Source: a virus. From it: DNA of 64,000 bases. The number at the start of each line of letters is the position of its first letter. Within the stretch, counting starts at the first letter, position 1. The notes below the pieces were generated by a model. That model saw only the letters and a program-made list of their open reading frames with translations. It did no database searches and was not told where the DNA came from. The position numbers and the translations under genes are program-made. Where the stretch lies: IMG/VR virus record IMGVR_UViG_3300045988_127105, positions 8,249 to 72,248 of that record; one strand, 5' to 3'. This document shows positions 16,309-37,502 of this stretch, piece after piece.

Positions 16309-16341
16309 ATAATTGTTTAACATTAAAAACATAAAAAAGAT

Positions 16342-17367: not shown

Positions 17368-17389
17368 ACATAAGCTATAACAAGTAAGT

Positions 17390-17432
17390 AAAAAAGTGGT
17401 GAACTTTTAGAAGGTTCACCACTTTTTCTTTT
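17390..17432. terminator. bidirectional intrinsic terminator
   Basis: Stem AGTGGTGAAC (17395-17404) pairs with GTTCACCACT (17414-17423). Flanked by A5 on one side and TTTTCTTTT on the other. Lies between convergent genes. Confidence 0.75.
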
Positions 17433-17434
17433 CT

Positions 17435-20400
17435 TTATTCTATCCTATCCAAATCTTCTACAGCCTCCTGCATTATCATCTCAATATTCTTATTCGCGAA
17501 GTCCACCTGCTTCTTATCATCGGCCCACTTCTTTCTCATCGTGTTCCAGTGTCTCATTCGCTTTTCCGCATTCTTGATGATATTCACCTTTCTTTGCTCA
17601 GGCGAACCTTCGAACTTTTCCAATGCAGCAGCATTTTCAATCCTCTTCATCGTAGGCACGTTCTTCGAGTTCAGCTTGTCGTTATTGGCGATAGTCTGTT
17701 CCATTTCCTCCTTGTAGTTATACCATTTGGCTTTGGTTCTCGCCATGCTCGACTGTTCTCTTGGAGTATAGAAGAGTGAGCGCAAGAATGGCACGTCGCC
17801 CACTTCTATCTCGTCTGTCTTGCCAGTCGTTGCCTTTGCGACCAAGCCTGCAGTGCGTTGAGTAAATGTGCCCATACCACCACTCCACGAACCGAAGAAA
17901 TGATTGAGCATCGACGGGTCTGTTGCCCAGTCAAGAACCTCGTTGCCCTTCATTTCCGGATTGCCAGGAGCTATATTGTTGGTCTTGGCGTTCACCCACT
18001 TGTTCAAGTCCACAAGTCTTGCCGGAACATTATTATAGGCGTTCTGCCATGCCGGGTTAAGCTCTGTCTTATCGCCCGTTCGTCTTATTGGCGCACCCTT
18101 CCAGTCGTTGTTAAGCCACCATTCAATGAACGGAACTATAGCAGTAGGAGCAATACCTTCTGTAGTCATGCCAACTCCATTTTCCAAGCTCTTTTCATAG
18201 TTCGGATTATTCAAGAAGTCCATTACTGGGAATAGCTGCGACATACAGCCCACGGCATCCATCGCCATGTTTCTCTGGCTCTTCACGTTCTTGGCAAATG
18301 TCTGTCCGGCTGCCAAGTCACCAAGACTATAGAACGCTCTCAATTCAATGGCCAACGGCACAGTCACAAATTTGTTATTGCCCACATATATACACAGGTT
18401 GTTTCGTCTGATATAGTCAGGCAACTCGCCGTACGGATCCTTCACGTTACCTCTGTCCTTATCGTCCTCATTCTGTATAATAGCATTGTTGACAGCAGCC
18501 ATAATCAACGCTAAGGCAAACGGTGCAGATGTCATAGCAACAGTAGTACCCACAGGCGCACGCTTGATATTCTTGAACAACAGGTTCGTGCTCTGAATGC
18601 CAGCATTAAAGAACATCGAGTAGTTTCTTAGGTAGCCAGCCACAAAACCGTATGTGTTTCGCCTTGCCTTCTGCCAATCACCCATTTCTCCGTTCTTGAA
18701 GCTCTTTATAGCATCACCCGAACCATGACGGTTGAAGTTTGTCGATACCTCCTTTGCGTCATACGCGCTTCTTGCTGCCGAACGTCCCAAGTCTCTTGAT
18801 GTGCAATATGTGGCAAATCGTGCCATGTTCTCAGCCACCTCGTTCAGATTCTCCACGTTCTCGCCTAATTTCTTAAGCACTTCCACAGCATTAACCATAA
18901 CCTTCTTCGCGCCCTTTGCCGATTCCTTCTCCACGATACTCTTGTAGCTCTTCTCCATATCGTGCATCGAGAACAACTGTACAAAGCCTGTCTCGCCACC
19001 GTTCTCCATGAACTCCTTGAAGTATCGCTCCATCTTCGAGTTGCCAAGCGTGCCCTCTCTGTATCGGGCATACAGTCCGAAGCCTACACCATTCTTGAAG
19101 TCTTTCATCTTCATGCTCTTTAAGCTTCCTGCACCCTCATTGTAGAACATATTCAGCGGATTAAGCTCACCATAATAGCGTGACCACTTTGCAAGATATC
19201 TTCCACCTTCCTTTGCAGCAACATGCGAAGATGCAAATTCCATGTCTCTCACGATGTTTCTCATCACAAACTCTGGGCTCCACGATGTTGAGGCCATAGC
19301 CATCCATCGTGTCACAGCCTGCAACGACCTGACGCTTGCCTTGCCGTTCTCCAGCATTCCGTTCAAAGCCTGTGCTGCTCTCGGATTGCCAAGCACCACA
19401 AATCTGTGTGTTCTTCCGGCTATCTTCACGTCCACAAAGTGTTGGCTCTTGTCCTTCGCTCTTTGGAACTTGAAGCCTATGTCCGTTCCATTGCTCAGAC
19501 TCTTTGCCTCACCCTTAGCTTGCTTGGTCCTCATGTCCGTTTCAAAGGCATCCACAATGCTCGCAACATCATCTGCGCTTGCTCCTTCAGGAATCTGCGG
19601 ATAAGCCTCCTCCCAAATGTCGTTGCCGTTCAAGTCCGTGCCAGTTTTCTCAACCCACACCTTTGTCTCCTTCACAAGGTTCTGCTCTCCGCTGTTTCTC
19701 ACGAATCGCGCAAAGGCTAACTTAATAGAGTTCTGACCTCCGTTTCTTATCGCACGGTTGCCCATCAAACCTATCTGTGCCAATATCTCCACATTGCTCA
19801 GACTCTTTCGTCCCTTGGCGTTCATCAGCGTCGTGCCAATATAATTGCTCGGGTCGCCCATTTCTGTCACATATCCGTATACGTCCTCAGCGGTTGCCTC
19901 GTCAAACTTTCTCAACGGTACATACCAGTCAAACATATTCAACACTCCGTCGTGTGTCTCCTTGGTGATAATGTTATTCTCGTAGTCCGAATTTACCGAA
20001 TAGTCTGTAGCTGCCTTCACCTTCTTCCAGAAGTCGGCAACTGAGCCTTTCTTCATGCTTTCCATGCTCGCCTCCTGGCTCACAACCTCGTCAATAGCTC
20101 CGGCATCATCATAAGGCGATTTCATATCGTCAATGCCCTGCAATCCGTGCATACCCGAATAGTCATGCTCTTCTGCCTTAAAGTCCTTATCCAAGTTCTG
20201 TACTATCCACTCGTCCATCTGACGGTAGTACTCCTTCAAGTCTATCTGTCCCGAGTCAAGCTTCTTTCTAAGGTCGCTTCTCTCGTCCTTCCAAGCAGTC
20301 TCCAAAGCATCAACACTATCGGATTCTTCACTTTTCACTTTTCCCTTTTCACTCCTTATCCAGTCTCTCACGAACAGCACACGGTTTCTCTCCAATCCAT

Positions 20401-23400
20401 GTTTTCTAATCATATACAGGTTGAAGTTCCTTATTCTGTCCTCCACCTTCTTGCCATCGAAGCTATCCAAAACGCTCGACATAGCCTTGCTAAGCGGGTC
20501 CATATAGCGTATTTCGAAGAGCTTTGATTTGTCGCTCATCATGCCCTCCGTGATATTCTGCATCAGATATGGGTTCATCGAACTATTCACATCTTCAATC
20601 TTCCTGATAGACGGATCAATAGCCTCCATCAGTTTCTTCAACGAGAGCATATTATCCATGAAAGCCTCCGTAGCCATATAGCTATGACGGTCCAGGGCAT
20701 GATGGTATCTATCCAAAGCGGTAGCAGCACTTGGAGCCGTGCGGTAGTGTATCTCTCCGTCCGTTGCCTCCAGCCATTCCTCGCGACTCATACCCTCGAA
20801 GTCATGGCTCTTGCCGTCGTTGTCATACAGCTCGCCGCCCTCAATCTTCGTGTACTCCGTCTTCTCATGCTCTATCTTCCACCTCACAGCCTCAGCTCTC
20901 ATCTTCCACAGCGGACTGTCTCCATGCTTCTGCACATTCTTCGCCAACCAAAGCATATACTTCACGGCCTTTACGTTAGGCGAAACTCTGTAGCCTATCT
21001 CATGCAGGGCATCTGTCACCTTATTCTTAATGTAGTTCCAGAATCCCGGCTCACCCTTTCCGTCCTCTGCGCTCTTGGCGATAAACTCCTCAATAGCGTC
21101 ATAGAATCCAAGGTGATTCATGTTCATCTTTTCCTTCACATAAGCTCTCAGCTCGGCATTGATAGGATTATCCAAGTCCATCCAAAGACCACGCATGTAG
21201 TCATTGAATTTATCTCCAAGCAATCCTCTCATGCCCTTGTGTCCTACGGTCTCGTGCCATACGGTTTTCTCCGCGGTATACGAGTCATGGATATTCGGCA
21301 TATACAGATGCACCTCGCCCGTCTTCTCGTCATACCAGCCAGTCACCTGCTTGCCATTCTCTATGTCCTTGCGCACCTTCGGGTTCTCAATCTCCTCAAC
21401 CGAGTTCACCATCTTCACCTTGCCTCCAGTTCTCTTCGCAACCTTCTCCACGGTCTTGATGATACGCTCGCTCACAGCATTCGAAGTCCCCGAAGTCTTC
21501 TCAGGTGTTACAACACCATCGCCTTCTTTTCTAAAGAAAGTCTCCCCATCTGTTAAATTTTTACTCTCATCAAGCAATTTTTTGCCCGAATCGTAGGATT
21601 TCTCAACTCCTTGCAGTAACTTTGCGGTTGAAATATAACCGTTGGTTGTACTGTTCAAAGGGAGACTGTCGGATTCGTTCGCTTTCTCGGAACCTTCCGA
21701 CGTTATATTTTTAGAGTTGCTTGGTGTCATGTCCAAAGGGGAACTGTCGGGTAACACCGCTGTGCCAGGAGTGTCAGGCAGCTCTATTTTTGTTACCTCA
21801 TAGCTATGAGGTTTATTTTCTTCCCCACCTCTGAACTCTTGCATAGTAGTCTTCACACGGTATATCTTACCGTCCATCTCTACTGCGCCATAAAGTCTAT
21901 GTACAAGGATATTGTTTCCATATCCAAGCTCGGCTTTTCTTTTTCCGGTTTCGTCCTTTACGTTATAATCCGCGTGAATCTCAGCCTCGATGCTCTCATG
22001 AATAACATCTGTAAGCTTTGGAAGGACGGAAAGATGAATATCAAGATTCTCACTTTTACGAACAGCACTTTCTGAAAGATATTTTTCAACAGCCCTTTTG
22101 CTGATAATATAAGGTGTACCATCGCGCATAGTAGGCATTTCTGTCTTTCCCATTGTTACAAGGTTTTCTCTTGCCCATTCTCTGGCATTTTTCAAAGAAG
22201 TTTCAATATTGTTACCAAAGGGAGACTTCTCAACCTCTACCACCTTCACCTTCTCCTTATTCAGATTAGGCATAACGATTCCTTTCTCCTCCACAGCTCT
22301 GTCTCTCACAGCATCAAAGTGTTCCTTGCTGTCTGAGAAGGTATCACCAAGCTCCATGCGGTAATGCACCTTGCTTTCTTCCTTTACCTTTACGCCAAGC
22401 TCCGAAAGTCTGTCAAGTACATCCTTTAGCTTTTCTTCCTTTACCTCGGCAAGCATCGTGTTTCCTCTTGTCTCAAAGTTACCGCCATCTACCATTTTCA
22501 GCAGCTCCTTATCAAGGAAATACTTGCCTCCTTTCTTGTTGCTCTTCGGGACACGAATAGTATAGTTTCGTGCCATTTTCATATAGTCGAAGCCTTGCTC
22601 TATCTTCACGTCTCCGTCCGAAGAAGTCACCTCTGTTATACCACCCTTGTTCGATGGCAATTCAAATTTTTCAGCTACGCTATTTATAGGCTTCTCGTTG
22701 GCAAGACCATTCGGCTCAAAATTCCCAGGCATCAAAATGCCTGTCTTCACATCGCCTGTGTCTGTTGTGTACTTCACCAACTGACCGCCCAAGCCTTGCT
22801 CCTTAGTGTCAATCAAAGCTTGCAGCAAGTTTCCGGTAATGATATATCCGTCCTTACGGCTCTCGTTACTTGTCAGCTTGTCCCAGTTGGAGGTATCCAT
22901 ACTCAGCACGCGCAGATGATTGTCACCCATCGCGGATGCCTGTCTTGTCAGTCTGTCAATTATGCCTATAACGTCTGCCTTGTCGCTTCCTAATCCTGCC
23001 TTTCCATTTATGGGGAATGTTATCTTTCTTCGTCCGTCCAAGGTAGCGAACGATACGGTAGAGGCATTTGGCGAGAAGTTGTCGGTTATCTTTATGTCTA
23101 TCAGTCTGCCATAGCTATTGCCGAATCCGCTCAACTCAGCAGGATTGTTCATGTCTGTTGGCAGTACAAATGCGTCTTCCGTGTTGAAGGTTTCAAGAAT
23201 ACGGTAGAACATTTCAGCCTTAGCCTTCAAGTTCTTCACCACCTCTTCGCCCTTTTCATTCTCTACTTTGTAGATGTTATCTTGTTGGTAAATGGCCATT
23301 TGGGCAATCTGCTCGTCTGTCATGCCCGAGTTCTTCTGATTTCGCAACGCATCCTTTAGATGCTTTTCACGGGCTTTGGCAGCTGCCTTCCTGGCACGCT

Positions 23401-26400
23401 CTTCTATCTTTGCCCCTTCTTCTTTTGCCTTGTTGATGAAGTAATCTTCTATTGCCTTTTTCTTTTCTTTCTTGTACTCGTCCCAACTCTTGCCGCCCGT
23501 GAGTCCGTCCTGAGCTTTCTTTACTTCCTCAGCTTTCATAGGCTTTTTCAGCACAGCCATATTCACCTTCTCTACATAAGTATTGTCGGCAAAAGCATTG
23601 TCACCTCCTGGCTCTGAGCCTTCCTTCCAAACGCCCTTGTTTATGGTCTTTGCTTTCAGTGGCAACTCGGTTATCTCCAAGTCGTTTTCGCCCATTTCGT
23701 TCAGACGTTGTATCTCGGCTGCATAAAGGTCGCCTATCTCTTGCAACATCTTCTCTTGCTCTTTCACTTTCAGCAAAGCCATACGGCCAAGCAACTTGCT
23801 CGCGTCGCCTCCTGCCTCACTACTCATGCCGTCAGAAGAAGAAACCAACTTTTGTGGGTCTACTGCCGACAAGTCTGCTCCATAAGACTTCTCCCATCCG
23901 AATGGGTCTGCCATACGTGCATACAAGTCAAGGTGCTCTGCCATGTATTCCTTCACTACCTTGTCGCCGTACTTATTGGTAATGTCGGCTACTTCCATTT
24001 CATTGAACTTGCTCTTCTGTGAAGAAGTGGTGTTTGCGTCCAATGATTTCAGCTTTGCCTTGAACATCATCAACAGTCGCTGCTCTGCCGGGATAAGCGA
24101 CACAACGTATTCGTATGCGCCTCTTGCCACCTGTCCCGTTCTGTCTATACGTCCACGCATCTGCACCTCATCGTTCACGTCAAGCTGCTGCTGGGCAACA
24201 ATCATCACTCGTTTTCTCTGGTCGGCATATTTGCTTGAAGCATGGAGTGATATACCAGTTGCCGCACTCTTGTTCAAGATTAGCGCGTCTATCTGCCCGT
24301 CGTTAAACTCTCTCGCAAGTTTCTTCTTGTCTGTGTCCGCACGCTTCACCTTCGTTACCGTGCCGTTCTCGTTATACGCAAACTCTGTCTGCCTGCCAGT
24401 CAACTCGCCTACCTTATATCCTGCCTTCGTCAATTCGTTCTTGATAACGTCGATAGGAGAGAGGGATAGTCCGGTACTTGTCTTTCTTATCTTTTCTTCA
24501 AGCGCATGGTATGCTTCAACGGCATCTGCGCCTAAGTCTGATAGGTTTATGTATCCGCTTTCGCTTTCGTCTTTAGCGTTCTTGCTTGTATAGCGAAGCG
24601 TACCTTCAAGTCCTTTCTTTAGTGATGTGCCCAAGTCGGGAGCGTCCATTTCTTCGCCAAGCGCAAGGTTACCCGTCTGCGACTCGTTGGTATTGTTCAA
24701 TGCTATCACAGGCTTCATGCCTTGCTTCAAGTAGTCAATAGCTCTTTCTGCTGCCGACTTTGCTTTAAGCGAGAGAAGCACTTGCTGCACAGTATTGAAT
24801 GCCTTGCTTGCAAACGGTTGGTTCTTTATTCCCAAGGCTTCTGTGCCACGCTTTATGCCCATCGACGACTGCACCTCTGCAAGTTCTTCATTACGTCTGT
24901 CTACGTATGCGCTTACATAGGTTCTTTGGAAGTTGATGATGTCGTTGAACAGACCGATGATGCTGTCATACTGCTCGCGCTGTTCGGCAACAACTTCGGG
25001 GTCGTCAATGGCTTTCCAGTCAATAGTCACGCCTGTCATGTCTCGCTCGCGACGTATCATCTGTCCGCATTGTGTCAGCGCCTGACTCATGATTTCCTGT
25101 AGTGTGGCTCCTCCACGCTTCACGGCGTCTATCAAGTCGGATGCTTTTAGTCCTCCCTGGTTCATTGCTGTTCTTAGCGCATAGATTGGCATGTTGTCGG
25201 GACGCTTTGCGAATGTTGCAGAGAAGAATGTTACGTTCTTTGCCTTCTGAATGATGTGCTGGAAGTAGTTGCCTTGACCGCTGTCACCTCCTGCGGTATG
25301 GCTCTCATCCAATATCAGATAGCCGTTCTTCATGAGCTTTTCTATAGCGTCACGTCGGGCTTGTCCGCTGATTGCTGCTGCACCAAACTTTTTGCCTTTG
25401 GCTAATTTTCTTTCCTTACGATTGCCATTCTCGTCAAACTCATATACGCCGTTGCTTACTTGGCTGTATGTCGTCAGAACGTAATCATACTCCTTTGGTA
25501 GTTCTCCGTTCTTTTCTATATAGTCAAGCACTCTCTTTACTTCACTCTTTGAAGGCAAGGCAAATACTACGTTTCCGTCAGCGTCTGTAATGGCAGCTTC
25601 TTTTGCGCTTCCAAATACAAACGGTCTCAATTCTTTGCTACCTATGTCTACCAAGTCACGATATACGTCACTCAGCAATCCTGCTGTCTTTGTGAAGTAT
25701 ACTGGCACTTGTCCTTGTTTCTTGGCGTATCTGATAAGCGATGCTGCCTGTCTACCCTTGCCAATACCTGTCATATCACCGATGATAAAGGCATTGCCTT
25801 TCTTTGCCTGTTGCAAAGCGAGAGCTACTGAGTCTACTTGCTCTGCTGCAAGATGTGCGTATAGGTCTGCTTTATCGTTGTAGCCCAGTTCGTCTACCAA
25901 GAATTGGTCTGCATCACCCAGTTTTTCGAGGTTCTTATTAACTGCGTCTTGTTGGTCGGCTGGCATAACGGCTTTAAGAGTGAAAGGGTTTTCACTTCTT
26001 GGCGTATAAGCAACCTTTTCGGCACTTAGTCCACGTACGGGTCTGTCCACCCGCTCCAGTTGTCCCCGTGGTCTCCCTCCGTTCCCGGCATCGGTAGTTT
26101 CATCAGCATTTGGCTGAGTGTTAGGTCGTCCATTTCCTCCTGGTTCATTTCCTCGCTGCTTGTTGGTTCCAGTGGTTGGTTCCTTGCTTGGAGTAGGCTC
26201 TGCCCCTGCTCCGTTTGCTCCAGTAGCTCCATCAGGAAGTCCTCCATTTTCTCCTGGCTTGGTTCCTCCTTCTGTCCCCAATACATTGTCGGAAACTGGT
26301 TCGGCAGTCTTGTCATGTACTCCTCCAGTACGAACTGAAGGCTTTTGTTCGCCTCCTCCGTTTCCTCCTGCTCGTACTCCCTCTTCATTAACGTCAGCAA

Positions 26401-29400: not shown

Positions 29401-32400
29401 TATCGGGAATAGCCAAGTCTGGGTTCTCGTCTGCACGTATCCACACGCCAAGCTCGTTAGCCTCCACACGCTTGCCGTTCACGGCTGCTGCCATTGGAGG
29501 ATAGAGCTTACCGTCTATCACCTGCATCGCACGATACACCTTTACGGTCTCGCCATTCTCAAGCTCCTCAAGTGTAGCCTCGTCAGTCTCCTTGTGGTAC
29601 TTCAAGTCCGAATCGGTCTCCTCGCTCTCACGGATCACCTCCTCAGCTTCCTTCTCGTCCGTCACCACCTCAATACCAGTCTTCTTGGTTATCTCCGTAG
29701 CGATCCGCTTGATAGCCTTGTCTACTTCTCGCTGACCTTTTCTTGCTTGAACGTCTCTATCAGGGCTTCCTCCATTGTCATTCCCGGGTTTGCCTTCCTT
29801 ATCTCCCTCCAATGGGCCACCGTTTTCTTCGGTAGATACATCATCGATATTCTTCCGCTCGAGTGTCTTATCTCCACTCTTTGCAAGTCCTTCTTTTCTT
29901 CTTCTGTCATTTTCTCGTTCTTTTAATGATTTTTCTGATATGTTTAATAGAGTAGGATTATCTGTAATTTCAGACATTGCATCCTTGCCGTGTTCTTGTG
30001 CGTATGTTACAAGATGTGCTAAAGCTTCGTCGGCAAGCATATAAAGCGCATCTGTATCATCCATTTCCGAAGCTCGTTCTGTATACTCTTTCATATTTGA
30101 CAGAACTTCAACAACTCGTTCAAGTTCCTCTCGTGTAAGAGTATTCATATCTGTTATCGAATATACAAGAGCCTCGACCCTTGAAGGGTCTACTTCATTG
30201 TCCGCATGAACCGACTCATGCTCAAATGTCTCACGCAATTCTTCAGAGCCAGTACTGCCTTCAAGGTATATATGAATCTTACCATCTTCGTAATATCCTG
30301 GATAATGAGCACCCTCTGGCATATTTTCGATAATGGTCTTATCATTTTCTGTTTTCGCCGCATCCGCCAAGTCCTGCTTCGTCCTCAACACAACAGGCTC
30401 GTCATACCCATTACTCTTGGCAAACTCTTTCACATACTCTCCCATTTGGTCGAGTATACGCTCACGTTCTTCACCCTTGGCTTCCTTAAGCTGCTCTACG
30501 GCTTTGTTGTAGTCTGCTTCGCTTGTGATGACGTTTCCTCCTGGTGCTTGCGGTTCAGTTCCCTCAGAGCTGCCAGCATCGCCATTTCCTTCTTTGCTTG
30601 AATGTCTTGTTTCATAGTTCTTCCAGTTTCTAAGTTTCAAAAATTCCTTTATAAACTCTTCATTCGTAGGTCTCTCGCCGAACATTTCCGTCTGGTTGGC
30701 GTCAGCATAAGGAGCGGCATTTCTGTTATACGCCATCATCAGCTCACGGAAGTCCTCAACCTTACCCTCCAGAGCAAGAGCAATAGCCTGAGATATAGGG
30801 TCAAATCTGTCCGCAGCGTTCTCGCCAAACATAGCAGGAGTGCGCAAGTATGCATCCACACCGCTTCCGCCTTGACGAGCTTCGTACAGCAACTGCACTG
30901 CCTGGTCTATCTCCTTCATCAGAGCATAGTCGCCAAGTTTCATATTGTCCGTCACGGCACGGATGCCGTTCAGAGCCTTGGTTTTCAGCATAGCGTCAGC
31001 GCCCATCATGCGGATAGTGTTCTCCGAGAACACACTGCCCAATAGCAGGTTCTTCACGAAGTCCTTGCCTGCTGCCGAAAGCTTGTCCTCGCCCTCACGC
31101 AATCCCGCTATCTCGTTCAGACCAATCACGCCCTTATCAATTAAACGCTTTAGCAACGAGTTTATTGCAGTAGGATTGTTAAAGAATGCGTCAAGACTGC
31201 CACTGCCCTCTATCTCGGCTATAATGGCACCTACCTCGTCAGTACTTAACACCTTGGCATTCTTTACCGACTGCTCTGTATTGCCAATACTCTTGGTCTC
31301 TTGCCTGTTGAAAAGGTCAAATGTCTTACTTGTAAGCGGCATCTTTTTGTCGGGTACAAAATATACTGTACCCTTAAAGCCTGCCTCTTCTATTTGCTTT
31401 GGAGTCCAGCCGAAGCCTTCTGCGTTTTCACTTAGGCTCTCATAATACTTGCCGTCAGTACCATAGCGTTCCGCAAGTTGTTTACCCATTGTCGTGCCAT
31501 TTCCGCTTAACAGAATACCATCCTGCACAACTGGCACATTCTTTAGTGCTTGTCCGCCAAAGTCTCTGCCAATTTTCTCTGTAAACAGACGCGACTCCTT
31601 GTCTTTGTAAGAACGTGAGTTTGAGGAAGACCCGTCTTCATTAACTGGGAACCCCTCGTTCTGCTTAAAGTCATTAAACGGATCGTGCGAAGGTGTAAGT
31701 CCTGAAACCTCGCCATAAAAGTATTGACCTGTTATCTTAGTTCCGTCAGGAAGAGTGATAGAACCACGTCGTCCGGGAATCTTCTTTGATTTCTCGAACT
31801 TCTCTCGCACAGCAACACTCACTTCACCTACCGAACCTACACTACCTTCTTCACCTACACTACCTACCTTCTCCATTCCAGCCTTAACCTTATTCGCGGT
31901 CATTACCTTCTTGATATTGGTATATAGCTCCAGCTCTGCTTTGGCGGCATCAACCGCCTTCGTCTTCTGAGCCTCAGCTTCCTTGGCGTCGTTCAAATCT
32001 CCCGTGTAGTCCACCTTTATTTTTTCGGCTTCCTTCAGCATCTTCTCGGCTCTCTTTATCTGTCCGTCTACAGCAGTTTCTGCGTTCTCGCCAAACTGCG
32101 AAGACATCCACTCCGCTCCCTGTTCAGGTGTCATTTGCGAATAGTCAGCAGTCTCACGGCCTTTCGTGTCCTTCATCATCGGCACAGGTGACCCATCGGC
32201 AAATGTTAAAGTTTCGTTACTTCCATTGCCATTATCGGATGGATTCTTTTTTTCTCCTTCCCCTATAGGCTTTACATCTTCAACTCCAGGCGCCGACGCG
32301 CCCTCCTTCGGTGTTACAACACTCTCAGTCTTAGTATCGGATTTTTCACTTTTCTCTTTTACCTTTTCACTCTCAGCGTAAGCCACCGAGTTCATAACCT

Positions 32401-35400
32401 CCAACATCTCCTGATAGTTCTTGGCATAGTCCTCCGTCTTTTCCACATGGTCAAGCTGCACGTCCTTCTTGCTTACGAAGTCCATTTCCTTTGTATTCGG
32501 GTCAAGCACGCTAAGCATGTCGCCAACGTTTTCTCTCGCTCTACCTTCACTATCAAACGCAACATCGCCAGCTCCAACAATCAGCAGTCTGCCATTGTTG
32601 TCCTTCACAAACAACATCTGGCCGCCCTCTTGCTTCTCGCCGTTCAGCTCGCCCTTGTAGCTCCATTGCTCCACATGTTTCTGCACGGTCTCAGCAATCT
32701 TCTGTTCAGTTCCGCGATACATGCCCACAGCCTTAGCCTTGGCGTTGATATAGTCGGCAAAAGGTGCAAGCTGTTCCTGCGTCAGTCCCGAGTTTATCAG
32801 CTCCATGTATATCTGAGGTTCCGAAAGACCCTCCTTTGTCAGTCTCTCATACTCCTGCTTCAACACATCGTTGCTTTCCAAGGCTGCATTAAACGCCTTC
32901 TCTGCATTCTTCATGTTGTTCAGCACCTCATCCACAGCCTCGTTGTTAGGATTCTCCGTGCCAAGGTTATTCTCCTCAACCACGTCCTTGCCCTCTGTCT
33001 GCGACTGGTCGGGATGCAACGTTCCTTCCGGGAACTGTTCTCCCTCATAAGCCTTTCTCAGAGCCACACAAGCGTTCTGTTCCTCCTCGCTACGCTTCAA
33101 CGGGTCTTTGTCCATAGCTGCCTTCAACTGTTCAGCAGTAAAGCCAAACGTCTCAGCTACAGTCTCCAATGTTTCTTGTGCCGTTTTTTCGTCCTTTATC
33201 TGAGCTGCACCATAGGCATTACTCAAACGTTGGTTTTCGCGTCTCAGTCTGAGTGAGTAAACTACAGAGTCTCGTTCGTCTTCAGTTTTGACGATATGTT
33301 CTGACAATAGCTCTCCATATTTACTATACTCGCTTATAGTGCCTCCTCCATAACCAATATACTCCATCATAGGACGTGACGAAGGAACCGTTCCCATAAC
33401 CAAAGCAGAGAACTTAGCCTTTGTGTCCCAAGGTATTGTATTGTCTGCCATTATCTCATCATAGGCAGTCTTCACAAATTCAGCGTCCGTATCCTTATAC
33501 GACTCCTCGCCCTTTCCTCTGGCTGTTGTCTTCTTGGTTCGCAATGCCCAATGAGTAAATCCTTCCGGTCTTAACGGCATGTCTTCTATAAGCCTTTCGT
33601 ACATTTTTCGTAACGGTGCCTTGTTACTTCCGAACAACTGTTCTTTCTCCTCATTGGTGAATGTATATCCACCAAATGATGCTCGCTGACCGTCAGACAC
33701 CATAAGGTTGGCAAGGTTTCTCTTCACCATGTCAAGATAGCTTTCCTTTTTGCCATCCTTCGTATAACGATTAGGCAGTCTTGCGTGTGTCAGCTTCAAG
33801 GCTACAACGTTGGCACAAGCCTCAAGTGTGCCTTCAACGCTCCAGAAGTCGGTATCATGTCCCTCTATCATCTTGGCGACATTACCACCGACGTGCATAC
33901 CCCAACCTTCCATCGCTATTTGAAACACCTTGGCTGGAATACGCTTCACGCCACTCACATTATAGATTCCTGCACCTACAGCACCACCAATGCCACCCAT
34001 AGTAGCCCAGCTTGCGCCCTCAGAAAGACCGCCCATAGTCATAAGCTTCACGGTATTGCCTATCGAAGTGTCGTCGCCAGTAGAGTAGTTCTGCACGGCT
34101 GCATTCGTCGAACCGTACAGCACACCCGTCACGCCTTGACTCACAGCACCCGCTGTAGCCATTCTGACGATACGACCGCGCAATGACGTGTTCGCTATTC
34201 TTGCAGCCTGGGCTACTCCGTTACCCATAACCTTGCCTGCCACGGCTGCACCAGCCTTTCCTAATGCACCAAACACAGGAGCGTCTGCAGCAAAGCTCAA
34301 TGTTCCGCGTGCCACTCTCGCACCCATACCCGGTTTAACATAAGGATTTTCCCCGTTGTCGGTCATAGCCATTCCTTGCTGAGCATACTGTCTCTGCTTC
34401 TTCGACATCATACCCATCGACAAGATAGTGCCTATCATCGAGTCGTTGACACCACGGATGATATATTCTGCCGTACTCTTAGGCATATTACGGCTCAATT
34501 CGCTCTTCTCAAACTCCTCAGCTATCTTTGCTTGCAAGCCAGGAGCTATATAATTCTTTACATAATCCTCTGGGTCGATACCTAACGAAGCTGCCTTTTC
34601 TGCTATTTCCTTCTGCATCTTCGGGTCGGAGAACAACCCAGCCATGTCTTTCTCGGCATTCTTGCTGAGCTGATTCATTAGCTTGTCAGGATCAAGGGCT
34701 TCATTGTAAGCCTTACCTGCTGCCATATATGCAAATGGAGAGGCCTTGCTCAAAGCATCTTCTGCTGCAACACCTTTAACTGTCGCATCCTTAAACATCT
34801 TTTGGATACTATTGTTTATATATCCGCCAAGCTGTTTGTCAACAAGCTGTCTGCTGCTTTCTTCCAACTCATCCTCCAACTGTCCGCGTGTCTTAACAAT
34901 ATTGTTGTTCACGTCCTCGTTCCCAAGGTCAAAGGCAGGAGCATTACGTCTGTCTCGCTCACGGTTTGTAAATTGTCTTCCTGCCTGCTCCACATTCTGC
35001 CCCACGATATGCTGTCTCTCCCTTGTCTGCTTCACCATCTGTTTCACAGCACCCGGCTTTGTGTAGCTCACGGGAGCCTGTAATCTCTGTACGGCATTCG
35101 CATTCTTCAATCCGCGCACAAGCTCGCTATCATTCTCCATCGGCGCTGAAGCGCTCTCATATGCCGTAGTGTTTCCATGTGTTACAACACCACCGCCCCA
35201 CTTCTCTTTCGCCACGCTCTGTTGTGCTCTGCCTAATGCGGTCTTTGGTTGCTGCTGAGGCTTTGTCGCTCTTGGCTTCTGCAACTTGCGCATAAACTCC
35301 TCATACGAACCACCCAAGTCAGCACCATTCTTTGTGAACAGGTCGTACACAGCCTTTCTGTTGGCATAATTGCTGTTACCAGTAAACTTCTTTTCGAATG

Positions 35401-35476
35401 TATTATAGTCCTGGCTATAGCCGTTGTCAGCCATAAGCTTGTACATCCTCTGCAACTTACTTCTATCTATTGCCAT
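17435..35476 (-). CDS. giant polyvalent multi-domain protein (6,013 aa) with a DarB-like methyltransferase-helicase core
   Basis: Uninterrupted ATG..TAA ORF.
- MTase motif I EPSAGNG: aa 2811, nt 27026-27046.
- MTase motif IV NPPF: aa 2869, nt 26861-26872.
- Helicase motif I GDMTGIGKGR: aa ~3240.
- Helicase motif II DESH: aa 3390, nt 25298-25309.
- Helicase motif VI QMRGRIDRTGQ: aa 3772.
- HESVH at aa 1753, HEYAH at aa 2252, HETVGH at aa 4741.
- Gly-rich hydrophobic region aa ~380-510; TM-like segment aa ~5640-5665. Confidence 0.9.
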   Translation of the reverse strand: MAIDRSKLQRMYKLMADNGYSQDYNTFEKKFTGNSNYANRKAVYDLFTKNGADLGGSYEEFMRKLQKPRATKPQQQPKTALGRAQQSVAKEKWGGGVVTHGNTTAYESASAPMENDSELVRGLKNANAVQRLQAPVSYTKPGAVKQMVKQTRERQHIVGQNVEQAGRQFTNRERDRRNAPAFDLGNEDVNNNIVKTRGQLEDELEESSRQLVDKQLGGYINNSIQKMFKDATVKGVAAEDALSKASPFAYMAAGKAYNEALDPDKLMNQLSKNAEKDMAGLFSDPKMQKEIAEKAASLGIDPEDYVKNYIAPGLQAKIAEEFEKSELSRNMPKSTAEYIIRGVNDSMIGTILSMGMMSKKQRQYAQQGMAMTDNGENPYVKPGMGARVARGTLSFAADAPVFGALGKAGAAVAGKVMGNGVAQAARIANTSLRGRIVRMATAGAVSQGVTGVLYGSTNAAVQNYSTGDDTSIGNTVKLMTMGGLSEGASWATMGGIGGAVGAGIYNVSGVKRIPAKVFQIAMEGWGMHVGGNVAKMIEGHDTDFWSVEGTLEACANVVALKLTHARLPNRYTKDGKKESYLDMVKRNLANLMVSDGQRASFGGYTFTNEEKEQLFGSNKAPLRKMYERLIEDMPLRPEGFTHWALRTKKTTARGKGEESYKDTDAEFVKTAYDEIMADNTIPWDTKAKFSALVMGTVPSSRPMMEYIGYGGGTISEYSKYGELLSEHIVKTEDERDSVVYSLRLRRENQRLSNAYGAAQIKDEKTAQETLETVAETFGFTAEQLKAAMDKDPLKRSEEEQNACVALRKAYEGEQFPEGTLHPDQSQTEGKDVVEENNLGTENPNNEAVDEVLNNMKNAEKAFNAALESNDVLKQEYERLTKEGLSEPQIYMELINSGLTQEQLAPFADYINAKAKAVGMYRGTEQKIAETVQKHVEQWSYKGELNGEKQEGGQMLFVKDNNGRLLIVGAGDVAFDSEGRARENVGDMLSVLDPNTKEMDFVSKKDVQLDHVEKTEDYAKNYQEMLEVMNSVAYAESEKVKEKSEKSDTKTESVVTPKEGASAPGVEDVKPIGEGEKKNPSDNGNGSNETLTFADGSPVPMMKDTKGRETADYSQMTPEQGAEWMSSQFGENAETAVDGQIKRAEKMLKEAEKIKVDYTGDLNDAKEAEAQKTKAVDAAKAELELYTNIKKVMTANKVKAGMEKVGSVGEEGSVGSVGEVSVAVREKFEKSKKIPGRRGSITLPDGTKITGQYFYGEVSGLTPSHDPFNDFKQNEGFPVNEDGSSSNSRSYKDKESRLFTEKIGRDFGGQALKNVPVVQDGILLSGNGTTMGKQLAERYGTDGKYYESLSENAEGFGWTPKQIEEAGFKGTVYFVPDKKMPLTSKTFDLFNRQETKSIGNTEQSVKNAKVLSTDEVGAIIAEIEGSGSLDAFFNNPTAINSLLKRLIDKGVIGLNEIAGLREGEDKLSAAGKDFVKNLLLGSVFSENTIRMMGADAMLKTKALNGIRAVTDNMKLGDYALMKEIDQAVQLLYEARQGGSGVDAYLRTPAMFGENAADRFDPISQAIALALEGKVEDFRELMMAYNRNAAPYADANQTEMFGERPTNEEFIKEFLKLRNWKNYETRHSSKEGNGDAGSSEGTEPQAPGGNVITSEADYNKAVEQLKEAKGEERERILDQMGEYVKEFAKSNGYDEPVVLRTKQDLADAAKTENDKTIIENMPEGAHYPGYYEDGKIHIYLEGSTGSEELRETFEHESVHADNEVDPSRVEALVYSITDMNTLTREELERVVEVLSNMKEYTERASEMDDTDALYMLADEALAHLVTYAQEHGKDAMSEITDNPTLLNISEKSLKERENDRRRKEGLAKSGDKTLERKNIDDVSTEENGGPLEGDKEGKPGNDNGGSPDRDVQARKGQREVDKAIKRIATEITKKTGIEVVTDEKEAEEVIRESEETDSDLKYHKETDEATLEELENGETVKVYRAMQVIDGKLYPPMAAAVNGKRVEANELGVWIRADENPDLAIPDIDSKTKEQKVDKKTGELKWKFKLDKGGKDATGKKATDIPAAYNPYWHTSRSPLNDQFKSAWIRPNIVVVECEVPVSELSSGYKAERAKDAVGEVDWKSGVVSGEVYKQTGRARKVILSRWCKPVRVLSDAEVAQRAKEFVGDAKVEIPENVLTPRQRIEFEKAGFKIGAPEKGVKKSDQINEALKRGLQIDNSVKEFRTAKGEVYGFTDGEKIYLDTKKMKPETPLHEYAHLWCDMLRKVNPKEWENVKKLFDKVEGLKEEVQKLYPELEGDALYEEMITTYSGREGTKKLEDVVRKLAAEEGKSVTESAKAQGFLEKVKVALTKYWKGVADVLGIHFTTAEEVADKVLADWAKGVDPRGSEKGKVKSEESDSKVEGVVTPKGDIKDATAPKGEEPLAILPKKEEKAFDPIGKAAENYKKDHPLTEGEIRSSDVDDIAKDMAVDYLNGEVTDDLHRAVYESIYEKVKDAKMKNATKQADNKTETTETPKVEASASPIEGLKNAAEKFAKEKEAAAEAMGEVKKPQQKADDAAVEASNKKVNDLWNDLLKAGREDLSASFIGLNARQLEVLPKLVSAMAENAYLRIKRGMHNLEDVVKEMRKEFAPAAQVFKKEDVDAIYEQMMNIRYRDGEQRMSLKEWADYYEKSSPKHKEELVGDSKEAEDRKLREKRFVDKVNIQLGFGHKFNGIVELRKMAEKCGLKDVKDTDLQELAETAIVHRARGIASSESTNNTEKFKRIKKLYENQPSLNQRDSERVMKQQYSTPAPYAFLADMYVKAGIEVKSALEPSAGNGMLTIGLPKDAVHVNDIDAQRLANLQRQGFKNITSQDGTQPFADKDVDVVVTNPPFGSATTKEYDGYKISSLEGQMAINALESMKDNGRAAIIIGGKTEYAKNGSLNPKDKALLGFLYSHYNVEDVINVDGSLYAKQGTTYPTRIILINGRRFDENAYPPVKDKARAEAVKSYDELYKRINDDILRSGRMDSPVGEGGEDANAKPNRPSVADVNEEGVRAGGNGGGEQKPSVRTGGVHDKTAEPVSDNVLGTEGGTKPGENGGLPDGATGANGAGAEPTPSKEPTTGTNKQRGNEPGGNGRPNTQPNADETTDAGNGGRPRGQLERVDRPVRGLSAEKVAYTPRSENPFTLKAVMPADQQDAVNKNLEKLGDADQFLVDELGYNDKADLYAHLAAEQVDSVALALQQAKKGNAFIIGDMTGIGKGRQAASLIRYAKKQGQVPVYFTKTAGLLSDVYRDLVDIGSKELRPFVFGSAKEAAITDADGNVVFALPSKSEVKRVLDYIEKNGELPKEYDYVLTTYSQVSNGVYEFDENGNRKERKLAKGKKFGAAAISGQARRDAIEKLMKNGYLILDESHTAGGDSGQGNYFQHIIQKAKNVTFFSATFAKRPDNMPIYALRTAMNQGGLKASDLIDAVKRGGATLQEIMSQALTQCGQMIRRERDMTGVTIDWKAIDDPEVVAEQREQYDSIIGLFNDIINFQRTYVSAYVDRRNEELAEVQSSMGIKRGTEALGIKNQPFASKAFNTVQQVLLSLKAKSAAERAIDYLKQGMKPVIALNNTNESQTGNLALGEEMDAPDLGTSLKKGLEGTLRYTSKNAKDESESGYINLSDLGADAVEAYHALEEKIRKTSTGLSLSPIDVIKNELTKAGYKVGELTGRQTEFAYNENGTVTKVKRADTDKKKLAREFNDGQIDALILNKSAATGISLHASSKYADQRKRVMIVAQQQLDVNDEVQMRGRIDRTGQVARGAYEYVVSLIPAEQRLLMMFKAKLKSLDANTTSSQKSKFNEMEVADITNKYGDKVVKEYMAEHLDLYARMADPFGWEKSYGADLSAVDPQKLVSSSDGMSSEAGGDASKLLGRMALLKVKEQEKMLQEIGDLYAAEIQRLNEMGENDLEITELPLKAKTINKGVWKEGSEPGGDNAFADNTYVEKVNMAVLKKPMKAEEVKKAQDGLTGGKSWDEYKKEKKKAIEDYFINKAKEEGAKIEERARKAAAKAREKHLKDALRNQKNSGMTDEQIAQMAIYQQDNIYKVENEKGEEVVKNLKAKAEMFYRILETFNTEDAFVLPTDMNNPAELSGFGNSYGRLIDIKITDNFSPNASTVSFATLDGRRKITFPINGKAGLGSDKADVIGIIDRLTRQASAMGDNHLRVLSMDTSNWDKLTSNESRKDGYIITGNLLQALIDTKEQGLGGQLVKYTTDTGDVKTGILMPGNFEPNGLANEKPINSVAEKFELPSNKGGITEVTSSDGDVKIEQGFDYMKMARNYTIRVPKSNKKGGKYFLDKELLKMVDGGNFETRGNTMLAEVKEEKLKDVLDRLSELGVKVKEESKVHYRMELGDTFSDSKEHFDAVRDRAVEEKGIVMPNLNKEKVKVVEVEKSPFGNNIETSLKNAREWARENLVTMGKTEMPTMRDGTPYIISKRAVEKYLSESAVRKSENLDIHLSVLPKLTDVIHESIEAEIHADYNVKDETGKRKAELGYGNNILVHRLYGAVEMDGKIYRVKTTMQEFRGGEENKPHSYEVTKIELPDTPGTAVLPDSSPLDMTPSNSKNITSEGSEKANESDSLPLNSTTNGYISTAKLLQGVEKSYDSGKKLLDESKNLTDGETFFRKEGDGVVTPEKTSGTSNAVSERIIKTVEKVAKRTGGKVKMVNSVEEIENPKVRKDIENGKQVTGWYDEKTGEVHLYMPNIHDSYTAEKTVWHETVGHKGMRGLLGDKFNDYMRGLWMDLDNPINAELRAYVKEKMNMNHLGFYDAIEEFIAKSAEDGKGEPGFWNYIKNKVTDALHEIGYRVSPNVKAVKYMLWLAKNVQKHGDSPLWKMRAEAVRWKIEHEKTEYTKIEGGELYDNDGKSHDFEGMSREEWLEATDGEIHYRTAPSAATALDRYHHALDRHSYMATEAFMDNMLSLKKLMEAIDPSIRKIEDVNSSMNPYLMQNITEGMMSDKSKLFEIRYMDPLSKAMSSVLDSFDGKKVEDRIRNFNLYMIRKHGLERNRVLFVRDWIRSEKGKVKSEESDSVDALETAWKDERSDLRKKLDSGQIDLKEYYRQMDEWIVQNLDKDFKAEEHDYSGMHGLQGIDDMKSPYDDAGAIDEVVSQEASMESMKKGSVADFWKKVKAATDYSVNSDYENNIITKETHDGVLNMFDWYVPLRKFDEATAEDVYGYVTEMGDPSNYIGTTLMNAKGRKSLSNVEILAQIGLMGNRAIRNGGQNSIKLAFARFVRNSGEQNLVKETKVWVEKTGTDLNGNDIWEEAYPQIPEGASADDVASIVDAFETDMRTKQAKGEAKSLSNGTDIGFKFQRAKDKSQHFVDVKIAGRTHRFVVLGNPRAAQALNGMLENGKASVRSLQAVTRWMAMASTSWSPEFVMRNIVRDMEFASSHVAAKEGGRYLAKWSRYYGELNPLNMFYNEGAGSLKSMKMKDFKNGVGFGLYARYREGTLGNSKMERYFKEFMENGGETGFVQLFSMHDMEKSYKSIVEKESAKGAKKVMVNAVEVLKKLGENVENLNEVAENMARFATYCTSRDLGRSAARSAYDAKEVSTNFNRHGSGDAIKSFKNGEMGDWQKARRNTYGFVAGYLRNYSMFFNAGIQSTNLLFKNIKRAPVGTTVAMTSAPFALALIMAAVNNAIIQNEDDKDRGNVKDPYGELPDYIRRNNLCIYVGNNKFVTVPLAIELRAFYSLGDLAAGQTFAKNVKSQRNMAMDAVGCMSQLFPVMDFLNNPNYEKSLENGVGMTTEGIAPTAIVPFIEWWLNNDWKGAPIRRTGDKTELNPAWQNAYNNVPARLVDLNKWVNAKTNNIAPGNPEMKGNEVLDWATDPSMLNHFFGSWSGGMGTFTQRTAGLVAKATTGKTDEIEVGDVPFLRSLFYTPREQSSMARTKAKWYNYKEEMEQTIANNDKLNSKNVPTMKRIENAAALEKFEGSPEQRKVNIIKNAEKRMRHWNTMRKKWADDKKQVDFANKNIEMIMQEAVEDLDRIE

Positions 35477-36691: not shown

Positions 36692-37463
36692 AATCCTCCA
36701 CGTTTTTCTTCAACAAGTCAAACGCCTGACCAAGGGTATTGACAAACTTCTCTGCCTTTTCCCTACGCTTGTACTGAAATTCTATCTCCTTGTTCAGTAC
36801 AGCAATCACCTCGCACTTCTCTGACATGCGCTTAGCGTTCTTCTTTATCCTCTCTATCACCTTGTCCTTATACGCCAAAGCCTTCTCGTCCGACTTCAAG
36901 CAACGCTCAAATCTGTCACGCTCAGCACACACATCCTTGAAGAGAGCGTTCAAGTTCTCCAGCTCGGCCTTCAACGACTCAACCTCAGACGCAGGCTTGT
37001 TCTTCTTTGACTTTTCGACCTTCTCTTCAGTAACAGGATTGATAATATCTTTTTTAACTTTATGCCAAAACGACTCTTCATGGCTCTTTTGTGCAACGTT
37101 TGCCTTGTCAATCTTAGCGTTGATGGCATCTTCAACGGCCTGCATAGCCGTCTTTGCTGTCTCCTTGCGATACAATTCACCATATGTCATAGCACGCCCC
37201 CACGGTTCCAAAGAAAGAATAATTACTTCAGAAAATCCTCCAATGGACCGCAAAGTCTCTTCTTGCAGCTCCATAAGCTCCTTAAATTCCTTTGTCTCAG
37301 CAAGCTTCTTGCGCTCATACTCTCGGTTTGCAACCTCGTCGTCCAAAGCTCCCTTGAACTCCTTTGCCGCATTGACAAGCTCCTCAAAGCCATCCATATT
37401 GGCGTTGTTCTTCACCGTATTATTCACGTTCTTAACGTTCTTTCTGTTCTTAAATCTCTTCAT
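36669..37463 (-). CDS. coiled-coil protein
   Basis: ATG at 37463 (MKRFKNRKN...); the track start at 37472 is TTG. 264 aa, highly charged and helical. Overlaps the next gene by 23 nt. Confidence 0.7.
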   Translation of the reverse strand: MKRFKNRKNVKNVNNTVKNNANMDGFEELVNAAKEFKGALDDEVANREYERKKLAETKEFKELMELQEETLRSIGGFSEVIILSLEPWGRAMTYGELYRKETAKTAMQAVEDAINAKIDKANVAQKSHEESFWHKVKKDIINPVTEEKVEKSKKNKPASEVESLKAELENLNALFKDVCAERDRFERCLKSDEKALAYKDKVIERIKKNAKRMSEKCEVIAVLNKEIEFQYKRREKAEKFVNTLGQAFDLLKKNVEDYEHSIGR

Positions 37464-37502
37464 ATTGAGCAATAATTTTAATTTGAAAAAAAATATATAT
37501 GA

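Follow-up and report, generated by a model that had tools for sequence, protein, structure and literature searches.

The giant gene and its parts

The window analysed here is a stretch of 64,000 nucleotides (nt) of viral DNA (IMG/VR record IMGVR_UViG_3300045988_127105, positions 8,249 to 72,248), and the gene in question lies on its minus strand and encodes a protein of 6,013 amino acids (aa) with a mass of ~670 kDa. The open reading frame (ORF) was single and uninterrupted, as an earlier note on this DNA, made from the letters alone, had described. Domain content, family membership, cassette architecture, exchange points and genomic context were observed directly; they show N- and C-terminal modules that are constant across a large family and a centre composed of exchangeable cassettes. 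As a polyvalent protein of a podovirus-like Bacteroidales phage, the giant protein is probably packed into the capsid and ejected together with the DNA, and would form a delivery chassis with an exchangeable payload. Its parts are as follows, from N- to C-terminus:

17435..35476, minus strand: whole gene; ATG start, 6,013 aa plus stop, no internal stop
35186..35476, minus strand: variable N-terminal leader, aa 1-97, common to only 24-73 of 120 relatives; ends at the first GVVT(H) joint
30527..35185, minus strand: conserved N-terminal module, aa 98-1650, including a Gly/Ala-rich region (aa 380-530) and a ParB-like domain
31277..31729, minus strand: DdrB-like ParB domain, aa ~1250-1400; Pfam ddrB-ParB at 21 bits, under the cutoff of 27.6
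29897..30409, minus strand: cassette z1 (module 1), HESVH, aa 1690-1860; paralog of z3
28892..29629, minus strand: cassette domain X, aa ~1950-2195 (~245 aa), enzyme-like, between z1 and z2
28322..28864, minus strand: cassette z2 (module 2), HEYAH, aa 2205-2385; no sequence relation to z1 or z3
22343..28324, minus strand: DarB-like cassette, aa 2385-4378, comprising a pre-domain, methyltransferase (MTase), G/P/N linker, Strawberry-notch (Sno) helicase and unassigned tail; exchanged as a unit among relatives
26477..27199, minus strand: N6-adenine DNA MTase, aa 2760-3000; TP motif at aa ~2788, EPSAGNG at 2811, NPPF at 2869
26027..26476, minus strand: G/P/N-rich low-complexity linker, aa 3001-3150, recognised by composition
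23627..25969, minus strand: Sno-type SF2 ATPase/helicase, aa ~3170-3950; GIGKGR, DESH and QMRGRIDRTGQ motifs, and Pfam matches
21527..22345, minus strand: LPD3 cassette, aa 4378-4650
17438..21484, minus strand: conserved C-terminal module, aa 4665-6013, comprising z3, a helical region, a transmembrane-like (TM-like) helix at aa 5644-5662, LPD38 at aa 5680-5898 and a helical tail

Motifs were located directly in the translated protein, and all of those quoted in the earlier note were present within three residues of the place given: EPSAGNG started at aa 2811, NPPF at 2869, GIGKGR at 3237 (against ~3240), DESH at 3390 and QMRGRIDRTGQ at 3772, while HESVH, HEYAH and HETVGH started at aa 1753, 2252 and 4741, respectively. 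The G/P/N-rich linker was likewise real (21% Gly, 10% Pro and 9% Asn), and the TM-like helix at aa 5644-5662 was the sole 19-aa stretch of the protein with a Kyte-Doolittle mean above 1.6 (1.76). The supposed glycine-zipper-like region (aa 380-530) did contain 36% Gly+Ala and five GxxxG motifs, but its hydrophobicity was moderate (maximum 1.16).

The extreme length of the ORF, and the presence within it of DNA repeats that could mislead assemblers, might indicate an assembly chimera, a concern raised in the earlier note, or a decaying pseudogene left open by chance. However, two public contigs carry a record of the exact 6,013-aa product (the one that was read measures 72,476 bp), and clustering at 90% identity groups it with versions of 6,011, 6,051 and 5,742 aa under other source labels. 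Since other public assemblies thus contain the identical sequence and near-full-length versions of 90% identity, an artefact is very unlikely; moreover, hundreds of ~5,000-aa relatives are collinear and chance cannot keep an 18-kb frame open, and both explanations were therefore regarded as extremely improbable.

Constant ends, exchangeable centre and repeated joints

Relatives were collected by matching the N-terminal half of the protein; 120 listed of the 378 matches were mapped onto the giant protein. Nearly all were ~5,000-5,240 aa in length, many were situated on 50-75-kb contigs, and a few were named 'LPD38 domain-containing protein [Prevotella sp.]'. The family-conserved parts are the N-terminal ~1,650 aa (aa 101-1650 aligned in 113-120 of the 120) and the C-terminal ~1,350 aa (aligned in ~107-110), while the central ~3,000 aa is exchangeable. 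Within this centre the relatives form a mosaic, in which z1 was present in ~28, domain X with z2 in ~52, the LPD3 cassette in ~38-44, and the MTase-Sno-helicase block (aa ~2385-4378) in 13-14. The relative P0008 (5,088 aa) was essentially the giant protein minus three cassettes, and these explain the ~900 aa by which the latter is longer. In the majority of relatives the centre comprised a ResIII/Helicase_C helicase followed by an MTase, i.e., in reversed order, while a minority carried a PBECR3 nuclease, LPD23, an SprT-like module and Kinase-PolyVal, with no MTase. Since an MTase was kept in 101 of 106 full-length relatives despite these differing centres, MTase-helicase pairing seems to be strongly favoured but drawn from non-orthologous cassettes. 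The 'DarB-like core' of the earlier note needs correction: the pairing is present, but as an exchangeable cassette in a small proportion of relatives, rather than as the core of the family.

Exchange breakpoints fell at query aa ~1041-1088, 1648-1663, 1856-1924, 2384-2426, 4375-4384 and 4650-4665. They partly coincided with a repeated linker, …SEK.K.KSE(E/K)SD…(E/G)(G/S)VVTP(K/E)…, that emerged from self-BLAST in tiles; with the undivided protein, self-BLAST gave the identity match alone. In the DNA, the linkers comprised a 67-nt direct repeat (D1) in three copies of 72-88% identity, and a 34-nt repeat (D9) in two copies:

32305..32371, unstranded: D1 copy, aa ~1036-1057, ...SVVTPK...; at an exchange breakpoint
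28255..28321, unstranded: D1 reference copy, aa ~2386-2407, KVKSEESDSKVEGVVTPK; at an exchange breakpoint
20287..20353, unstranded: D1 copy, aa ~5042-5063, KGKVKSEESDS
21490..21523, unstranded: D9 copy, aa ~4652-4662, GDGVVTPEK; at the C-module junction (breakpoint 4650-4665)
35164-35197, unstranded: the other D9 copy, aa ~94-105
35177-35188, 32309-32320, 28259-28270 and 21503-21514, minus strand: VVT[P/H/Q] sites in the giant gene, at aa 97, 1053, 2403 and 4655
36641-36652, minus strand: VVT[P/H/Q] site in the 400-aa operon protein, aa 14-17, KEKREGVVTQPG

The linker motif occurred one to four times in 49 of the 120 relatives, in the same linker contexts and with flanks that had recombined independently; in P0066, for example, a hybrid joint united the upstream context of the aa-4655 joint with the downstream context of the aa-2403 joint. 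This independence of the flanks is direct evidence for in-frame exchange of cassettes at the joints. All five VVT[P/H/Q] motifs among the ~19,250 aa of ORFs in the window were found in the giant protein (aa 97, 1053, 2403 and 4655; shuffle expectation 0.09) or in the adjacent operon gene, and, beyond its place in a recombination joint, the motif could be a shared processing or targeting signal. It was absent from the sampled members (P0024, P0009 and P0015) of a subgroup of 68-72% identity with the same architecture.

The C-terminal module contained ~100 positions that are invariant across families only ~28% identical, including KHGLERN, GNPRAAQxxNG, NGGETG and NFNxxGSG. LPD38 was identified at aa ~5680-5898 (95-98 bits, Pfam cutoff 27) and, in the cassette preceding the module, LPD3 at aa ~4428-4552 (1.4e-8, 35 bits, cutoff 27). 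The module matched PHROG 14770 (835 bits) and phrog_616 (91 bits), while 323 records, from Stx-converting, Vibrio and Ralstonia phages, matched aa 5344-5898 (~555 aa). An AlphaFold model of the module was mostly helical, with a mean pLDDT of 56.8; fold (Foldseek) and profile searches with it recovered no solved relative, the Foldseek matches being meaningless.

Searches of Pfam and PHROG with the N-terminal module gave no assignment other than ParB. The ParB-like domain matched P1 DdrB (BLASTP E = 2e-6), and from this similarity the homology is taken to be real. At aa 1324-1331 (31484-31507, minus strand) it reads SGNGTTMG where P1 DdrB has SGNGRTMG; Arg was found at the same site in 103 of 119 relatives (DGNGRTM[A/T]), and Thr in the giant protein plus 15 others. 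If the Arg corresponds, as we infer, to the conserved active-site residue of the superfamily described by Iyer et al., then the domain may be catalytically inactive in this sub-lineage of 16 sequences.

The earlier note had proposed that three modules with HE motifs are paralogous. Modules 1 and 3 were linked reciprocally by jackhmmer (8e-41 and 2e-15), but iterative profile searches linked z2 to neither; three-way paralogy was rejected and only the z1-z3 relationship stands. Module 3 (z3, HETVGH; aa 4665-4900) has the HEXXXH form and is located inside the C-terminal module; its motif is kept as HEAVAH at the equivalent place in Bacteroides-phage proteins that are ~28% identical and matches the HEXXXH variant that Iyer et al. 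(2017) describe among polyvalent-protein metallopeptidases (MPTases). In an AlphaFold2 model of aa 1651-2400, modules 1 and 2 were confidently predicted (pLDDT 65-87; 71-87 for z1), both with three strands followed by the HEXXH helix and a further helix. Their Pfam matches were sub-threshold (z1 to DUF6782, E = 0.007; z2 to SprT-like, E = 0.11). On the basis of motif, predicted topology and these matches, a zincin (metallopeptidase-like) character is likely, as the earlier note had suggested; against this, comparison of the z1-X-z2 model with the PDB by Foldseek (best E = 0.45) found no metallopeptidase fold match and the PDB profile search for the same region was empty. Identification of z3 with the Pfam MuF_C 'metallopeptidase' was rejected, the two being separate regions in the Bacteroides-family proteins and MuF_C aligning with neither z3 nor z1.

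Domain X, situated between z1 and z2, had no match in Pfam (even at E up to 5), PHROGs or NCBIfam, nor a sequence-profile match in the PDB; the fold search again gave a best E of 0.45. Its AlphaFold2 model had a pLDDT mostly of 78-95, and the motifs YRxMQ, DGxLYPPM, YNPYxHxS, NDQF, VxVExExP, AKD and LSR were invariant. Smaller proteins of polyvalent type contained 85 homologs (36-86% identity), whose place in the chain varied, and an exhaustive search placed the domain in 824 representative protein clusters (521 at E<=1e-30). Among the 150 listed proteins most were 2,000-7,283 aa long, the carriers P0405, P0367, P0362 and P0442 having 7,283, 6,743, 6,725 and 6,507 aa; the 6,013 aa of the giant protein are therefore no record for the class. 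An R…TS…ExE-like pattern had suggested an ADP-ribosyltransferase, which was dropped, as there was no PDB fold or profile match and the weak BFVD matches were unnamed or uncharacterised. Given its 824 clusters, its confident predicted fold and the lack of a match to any known family, domain X makes a concrete candidate for a new anti-defence enzyme and a good one for an undescribed enzyme family.

The helicase of the DarB-like cassette was defined by AAA_34 (aa ~3208-3504, E = 4.2e-15, 55.9 bits, Pfam cutoff 27) and Helicase_C_4 (aa ~3687-3936, E = 2e-25, 90.5 bits, cutoff 30.5), which by these profile matches are the two lobes of a Sno-type SF2 ATPase, with GIGKGR, DESH and QMRGRIDRTGQ as motifs I, II and VI. 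The helicase, called SNF2/DEAD-type in the earlier note, is of the Sno type and not the SNF2-rel/Helicase_C type of DarB. The MTase was marginal in Pfam (MTS, 22.9 bits, cutoff 23). A profile of three sequences (the giant protein with its Bacteroides-phage and Acinetobacter-phage orthologs) matched EcoR124II HsdM at 7.5e-9, over 189 aligned positions spanning the TP motif, motif I and NPPF, and StySJI M at 9e-6. The N-terminal TP motif reads QQYSTPAP, and the MTase is collinear with that of P1 DarB (YSTPAP…LEPSAGNG…VVTNPPFG against YYTPKP…LEPSAGTG…VVGNVPFG; BLASTP E = 0.003). These similarities identify an EcoKI-like gamma-class N6-adenine DNA MTase, in keeping with the earlier call.

Iyer et al. 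(2017) present the DNA methylase-helicase dyad, typified by P1 DarB and with an EcoKI-like gamma-class adenine MTase, as the signature of the DarB antirestriction class; they note a Sno helicase variant in a few cases, and place LPD36 (four helices, GXGU motif) N-terminal to the MTase. In the giant protein, the MTase is indeed joined at its C terminus to an SWI2/SNF2-clade SF2 ATPase, with AAA_34 and Helicase_C_4 downstream. No LPD domain matched aa 2351-2850, even at E up to 5, and aa 2420-2759, immediately N-terminal to it, had no family assignment. The helicase of P1 DarB consists of SNF2-rel/ResIII and Helicase_C, as opposed to AAA_34 and Helicase_C_4; a DarB-seeded jackhmmer search found no member of the giant-protein family, BLASTP similarity to P1 DarB was confined to motifs, over the helicase to motif V alone, and tblastn with the MTase-helicase core did not find P1, Bcep22 or JC1. 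By sequence, then, the dyad is DarB-like and shares the MTase lineage, yet is no DarB ortholog. A stand-alone 1,986-aa 'N-6 DNA Methylase' of Acinetobacter phage MD-2021a (CAKLQH020000019, 5239-11199) was collinear with the cassette (28% identity over 95%, against giant aa 2751-3950), and the cassette thus also exists as an independent, DarB-sized protein.

Operon, genome and comparison with known systems

The giant gene closes an operon after three basic proteins, as had been proposed, and is followed directly by a hairpin:

37503-38243, 36669-37472 and 35489-36691, minus strand: three upstream operon genes (246, 267 and 400 aa), co-oriented and tightly packed
17391-17427, unstranded: terminator-like bidirectional hairpin with a 17-pair stem and T-runs on both strands, directly after the giant-gene stop

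The K+R content of the three proteins was 14-21%. The first (37503-38243) had one TM-like segment by hydropathy and matched Pfam T7_gp14 below threshold (E = 1.6e-4, 22 bits, cutoff 27), covering profile positions 5-164 of 187; in Bacteroides phage BS-TP4 it also had a match immediately upstream of the giant gene. The third (400 aa, 35489-36691) carried EGVVTQ at aa 12-17. By its structure the hairpin is terminator-like and would close the four-gene operon.

The window further contained a portal gene (phrog_156, 6.6e-58; Pfam P22_portal), a terminase-like gene, an SU10-type adaptor and an internal-virion-protein-like match, a gene content that identifies the DNA as that of a phage. It is podovirus-like (short-tailed type), and its host is a gut Bacteroidales, probably Prevotella. 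Megablast for near-identical phage genomes found none. The portal matched only three Bacteroides temperate phages (BS-TP4, BKO1-TP3 and BF1-TP2; 34-38% identity), and the hypothesis that its virion lineage is also that of Stx, Vibrio or Ralstonia phages was therefore rejected. In BS-TP4 and BKO1-TP3 the giant genes directly adjoin the portal gene, while in the window ~8 kb of opposite-strand genes lie between the two. A low-GC island was observed at 14001-17367 (0.36-0.40, against ~0.47 around it), with plus-strand genes at 14812-15384, 15436-16308 and 16342-17367 that are convergent with the giant gene and include one YadA-head repeat match and one weak minor-tail match. Relative to BS-TP4, the island may represent recently acquired receptor-binding or fibre genes inserted between giant gene and portal.

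Two observations were made elsewhere in the window. The early region at 42230-44070 (plus strand) held PcfM (DpnD-PcfM), PcfK and PcfJ-like genes, of families named after the conjugative plasmid pCF10. A tRNA-like call by ARAGORN at 61267-61364 (minus strand; 98 nt, 'tRNA-???', four-base anticodon tggg) had no Rfam support and was set aside as probably a false positive or very atypical; at gathering thresholds Rfam found no tRNA or other family in the window.

The closest cultured relatives were the giant proteins of the temperate Bacteroides phages BS-TP4 (gp3, 5,391 aa, 'hypothetical protein'), BKO1-TP3 (gp55, 5,553 aa, 'DarB-like antirestriction') and BF1-TP2; the paper describing BS-TP4 and BKO1-TP3 leaves the proteins undiscussed. 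In BS-TP4 the MTase-Sno-helicase core was 43% identical, the C-terminal module aligned and a gp14-like region was situated upstream; gp3 also had a strong ddrB-ParB match at aa ~1275-1399, at almost the same position as in the giant protein. However, its first ~2,700 aa could not be aligned by tblastn, and gp3 (1511-17686) carries an inorganic pyrophosphatase domain (InPase, 1.2e-51) that the giant protein does not.

JC1 gp69 and Bcep22 gp75 ('DarB-like antirestriction protein', Lessievirus) are likewise giant single ORFs in a virion module. JC1 gp69 has 4,515 aa (22% of the JC1 genome) and the same order of MTase, SF2 helicase, LPD3 and C-terminal LPD38, and 51 unique peptides of it were reported from CsCl-purified virions. 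It differs in its N-terminal lytic transglycosylase and COG4646/HepA-type helicase, whereas the giant protein has the Sno helicase, another N-terminal module of 1,650 aa with ParB, the additional z1, X and z2 cassettes, and 1,500 aa of further length; tblastn found no similarity between JC1 or Bcep22 and the giant protein in the MTase-helicase part. Ralstonia phage 'DarB-like' proteins matched the C-terminal module (E = 3e-11), as did Stx phage phi24B gp47 (933W-like; PHROG 616), with a ~555-aa C-terminal region including LPD38 (24% identity, E~1e-21). The latter protein (2,811 aa; LPD5, LPD1, LPD38 and MuF-C) was abundant in the virion proteome and invisible in the cryo-EM map, and its authors proposed a capsid-stored ejection protein with a conduit role; it has no MTase-helicase among its reported domains, and the portal lineage differs.

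P1 DarB likewise has an EcoKI-like adenine MTase (motifs TP, EPSAGxG and N(P/V)PFG) ahead of, and fused to, an SF2 helicase, and darB adjoins the portal gene, as the giant genes of BS-TP4 and BKO1-TP3 do. DarB is a stand-alone protein, whereas the dyad considered here forms part of a much longer chain of 6,013 aa, and the genome is podovirus-like. DarB is described as a 250-kDa head protein that is thought to enter the cell, and requires DarA, Hdf, DdrA, DdrB and Ulx, together with a 30-residue N-terminal capsid-targeting signal (PMC9024508). In P1, head packaging by this signal and protection of DNA in cis from type I restriction were established by experiment. The T7 gp14/gp15/gp16 ejectosome offers a further parallel, being composed of podovirus internal capsid proteins that exit with the DNA, and the giant operon starts with a gene whose gp14 likeness is sub-threshold; N4 virion RNA polymerase (vRNAP) is a packaged enzyme of ~3,500 aa with an MPTase domain. 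Sequence and fold searches found no similarity of the giant protein to T7 gp15/gp16, N4 vRNAP or P22 ejection proteins. The PDB held no relative by sequence of either half, and an NCBIfam scan produced nothing useful.

The polyvalent character inferred in the earlier note held good: several unrelated domains are combined in one chain, LPD3 and LPD38 exceed their Pfam thresholds, ddrB-ParB is weakly matched, and portal, terminase-like and adaptor genes are nearby. The polyvalent proteins of Iyer, Burroughs, Anand, de Souza and Aravind (2017) share its multiple effector domains, MPTase hubs, methylase-helicase dyad, LPDs, late-gene context and domain shuffling; fixed N- and C-terminal modules, cassettes exchanged at DNA-repeat linkers and domain X are not described in the sections of that paper that were consulted. 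The giant protein is an unusually large member of a class already described, and the dyad, the LPD38 virion proteins and the annotated Bacteroides-phage orthologs were also known.

Proposed delivery and payload, and alternative explanations

Packaging, ejection, antirestriction and cleavage are inferred for the giant protein from its relatives and the literature. In the preferred interpretation, which we hold to be probable, the protein would be packed into the capsid and leave it with the DNA; relatives of its C-terminal module, phi24B gp47 and JC1 gp69, have been found in purified virions, and packaging is proposed on that account. The constant ends would bring the protein into the procapsid, let it leave through portal and tail and make contact with the cell envelope, and with the three small operon proteins, one of them T7-gp14-like, may form an ejectosome. 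The central ~3,000 aa would hold the effectors, namely two HEXXH modules, domain X, LPD3 and the DarB-type dyad, of which the EcoKI-like MTase and Sno translocase might attach to the entering genome and shield it in cis, type I restriction being the most likely threat. Related phages would swap cassettes by recombination at the short repeated linkers (…KSEESDS…GVVTP…), and the metallopeptidase-like modules may cut the giant protein into separate units.

Several points weigh against this interpretation. For the giant protein itself, packaging, ejection, DNA methylation and a block to restriction are putative. Since the portal lineage differs from that of Stx, Ralstonia and Vibrio phages, it is the C-terminal module alone from which a virion location is transferred, and the role of that module, given its poor model and lack of structural match, is argued from conservation and position only. 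The T7_gp14 match of the first operon gene was below the Pfam threshold, the zincin calls were made without Foldseek or above-threshold Pfam support, and the ParB-like domain lacked the canonical Arg and scored under the Pfam cutoff. No peptidoglycan hydrolase was detected in the giant protein by Pfam, unlike in JC1 gp69 or T7 gp16. Finally, five relatives had no MTase, and antirestriction by methylation is therefore not the obligatory function of the family.

In a different reading of the same architecture, the giant protein is mainly a structural ejectosome or conduit protein (an analogue of T7 gp15/gp16 or P22 gp7/gp20/gp16), the SF2 translocase pulls the genome in, and the MTase and other cassettes are secondary. 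The family conserves its constant modules and not its enzymes, one conserved TM-like helix is situated beside LPD38, the portal and adaptor are of podovirus type, the operon starts with a gp14-like gene, and a conduit was proposed for phi24B gp47, whose reported domains include no MTase-helicase. Yet 101 of 106 full-length relatives retain an MTase, combined with either of two unrelated helicases, which indicates that the dyad itself is selected; MTase-helicase fusion marks the DarB antirestriction class, and searches by fold and by sequence connected the protein with neither T7 gp15/gp16 nor P22 ejection proteins, so that a mainly structural role was judged decidedly unlikely. A type IV secretion system (T4SS) might alternatively deliver the protein as part of a conjugative element, given that PcfJ, PcfK and DpnD-PcfM-like genes are only ~7 kb away and that MTase-helicase polyvalent proteins are also common on conjugative elements (Iyer et al. 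2017). This is very improbable: portal, terminase-like, adaptor and internal-virion-protein-like genes flank the giant gene, no relaxase or T4SS gene was seen, the carrying contig is 72.5 kb in length, and its closest relatives in culture, of 64-68 kb, were isolated as phages.

Alternatively, the chain could be a polyprotein precursor whose GVVTP-type linkers are cut ahead of head assembly or in the course of it, with only some fragments packaged, as for P1 DdrB, and the rest acting in the producing cell. All five VVT[P/H/Q] motifs occur in the giant protein (four) and the adjacent gene (one), at module borders and far above the expectation, and the protein has three HEXXH/HEXXXH modules of its own; Iyer et al. 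(2017) propose MPTase-driven processing and cite the cleavage of P1 DdrB. They also note, however, that N4 vRNAP, ArdC and TraC1 carry MPTase domains and are nevertheless transferred at full length, and peptidase activity is putative here, with no fold or above-threshold Pfam match. As the motif is absent from the sampled members of the 68-72%-identity subgroup of identical architecture, and the repeats are conserved at the DNA level, recombination joints explain the linkers without cleavage, and a polyprotein of this kind was considered improbable. A dual purpose, by which the GVVTP-type linkers are both recombination joints and cleavage sites for the built-in HEXXH/HEXXXH modules, is a tentative suggestion, possible but on balance unlikely. 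The fragment between the last two GVVTP motifs has 2,252 aa and includes the whole dyad plus LPD3, P1 DarB having 2,255 aa. If the linkers were dual-purpose, the gene would encode a 670-kDa programmable polyprotein that resolves after ejection into a membrane-associated chassis and free effectors; these would be an MTase-helicase unit of the size of DarB and domain X, the latter being a new counter-defence enzyme of wide occurrence.

The 2017 concept of polyvalent proteins is unchanged and the finding mainly adds detail; constant ends, a swappable centre and repeated joints, with domain X, are useful additions to it. Giant polyvalent proteins take about a quarter of such phage genomes. To our knowledge, hardly any aspect of them has been put to the test outside P1. 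The giant protein and its hundreds of gut-metagenome relatives show how the class is designed, with fixed end modules and a middle that is re-equipped by recombination at short joints. The constant modules suggest a part for targeting foreign cargo into capsids, as has been done with the DarB signal in P1, and the payload region suggests where new anti-defence enzymes might be sought in abundant phages of the human gut.

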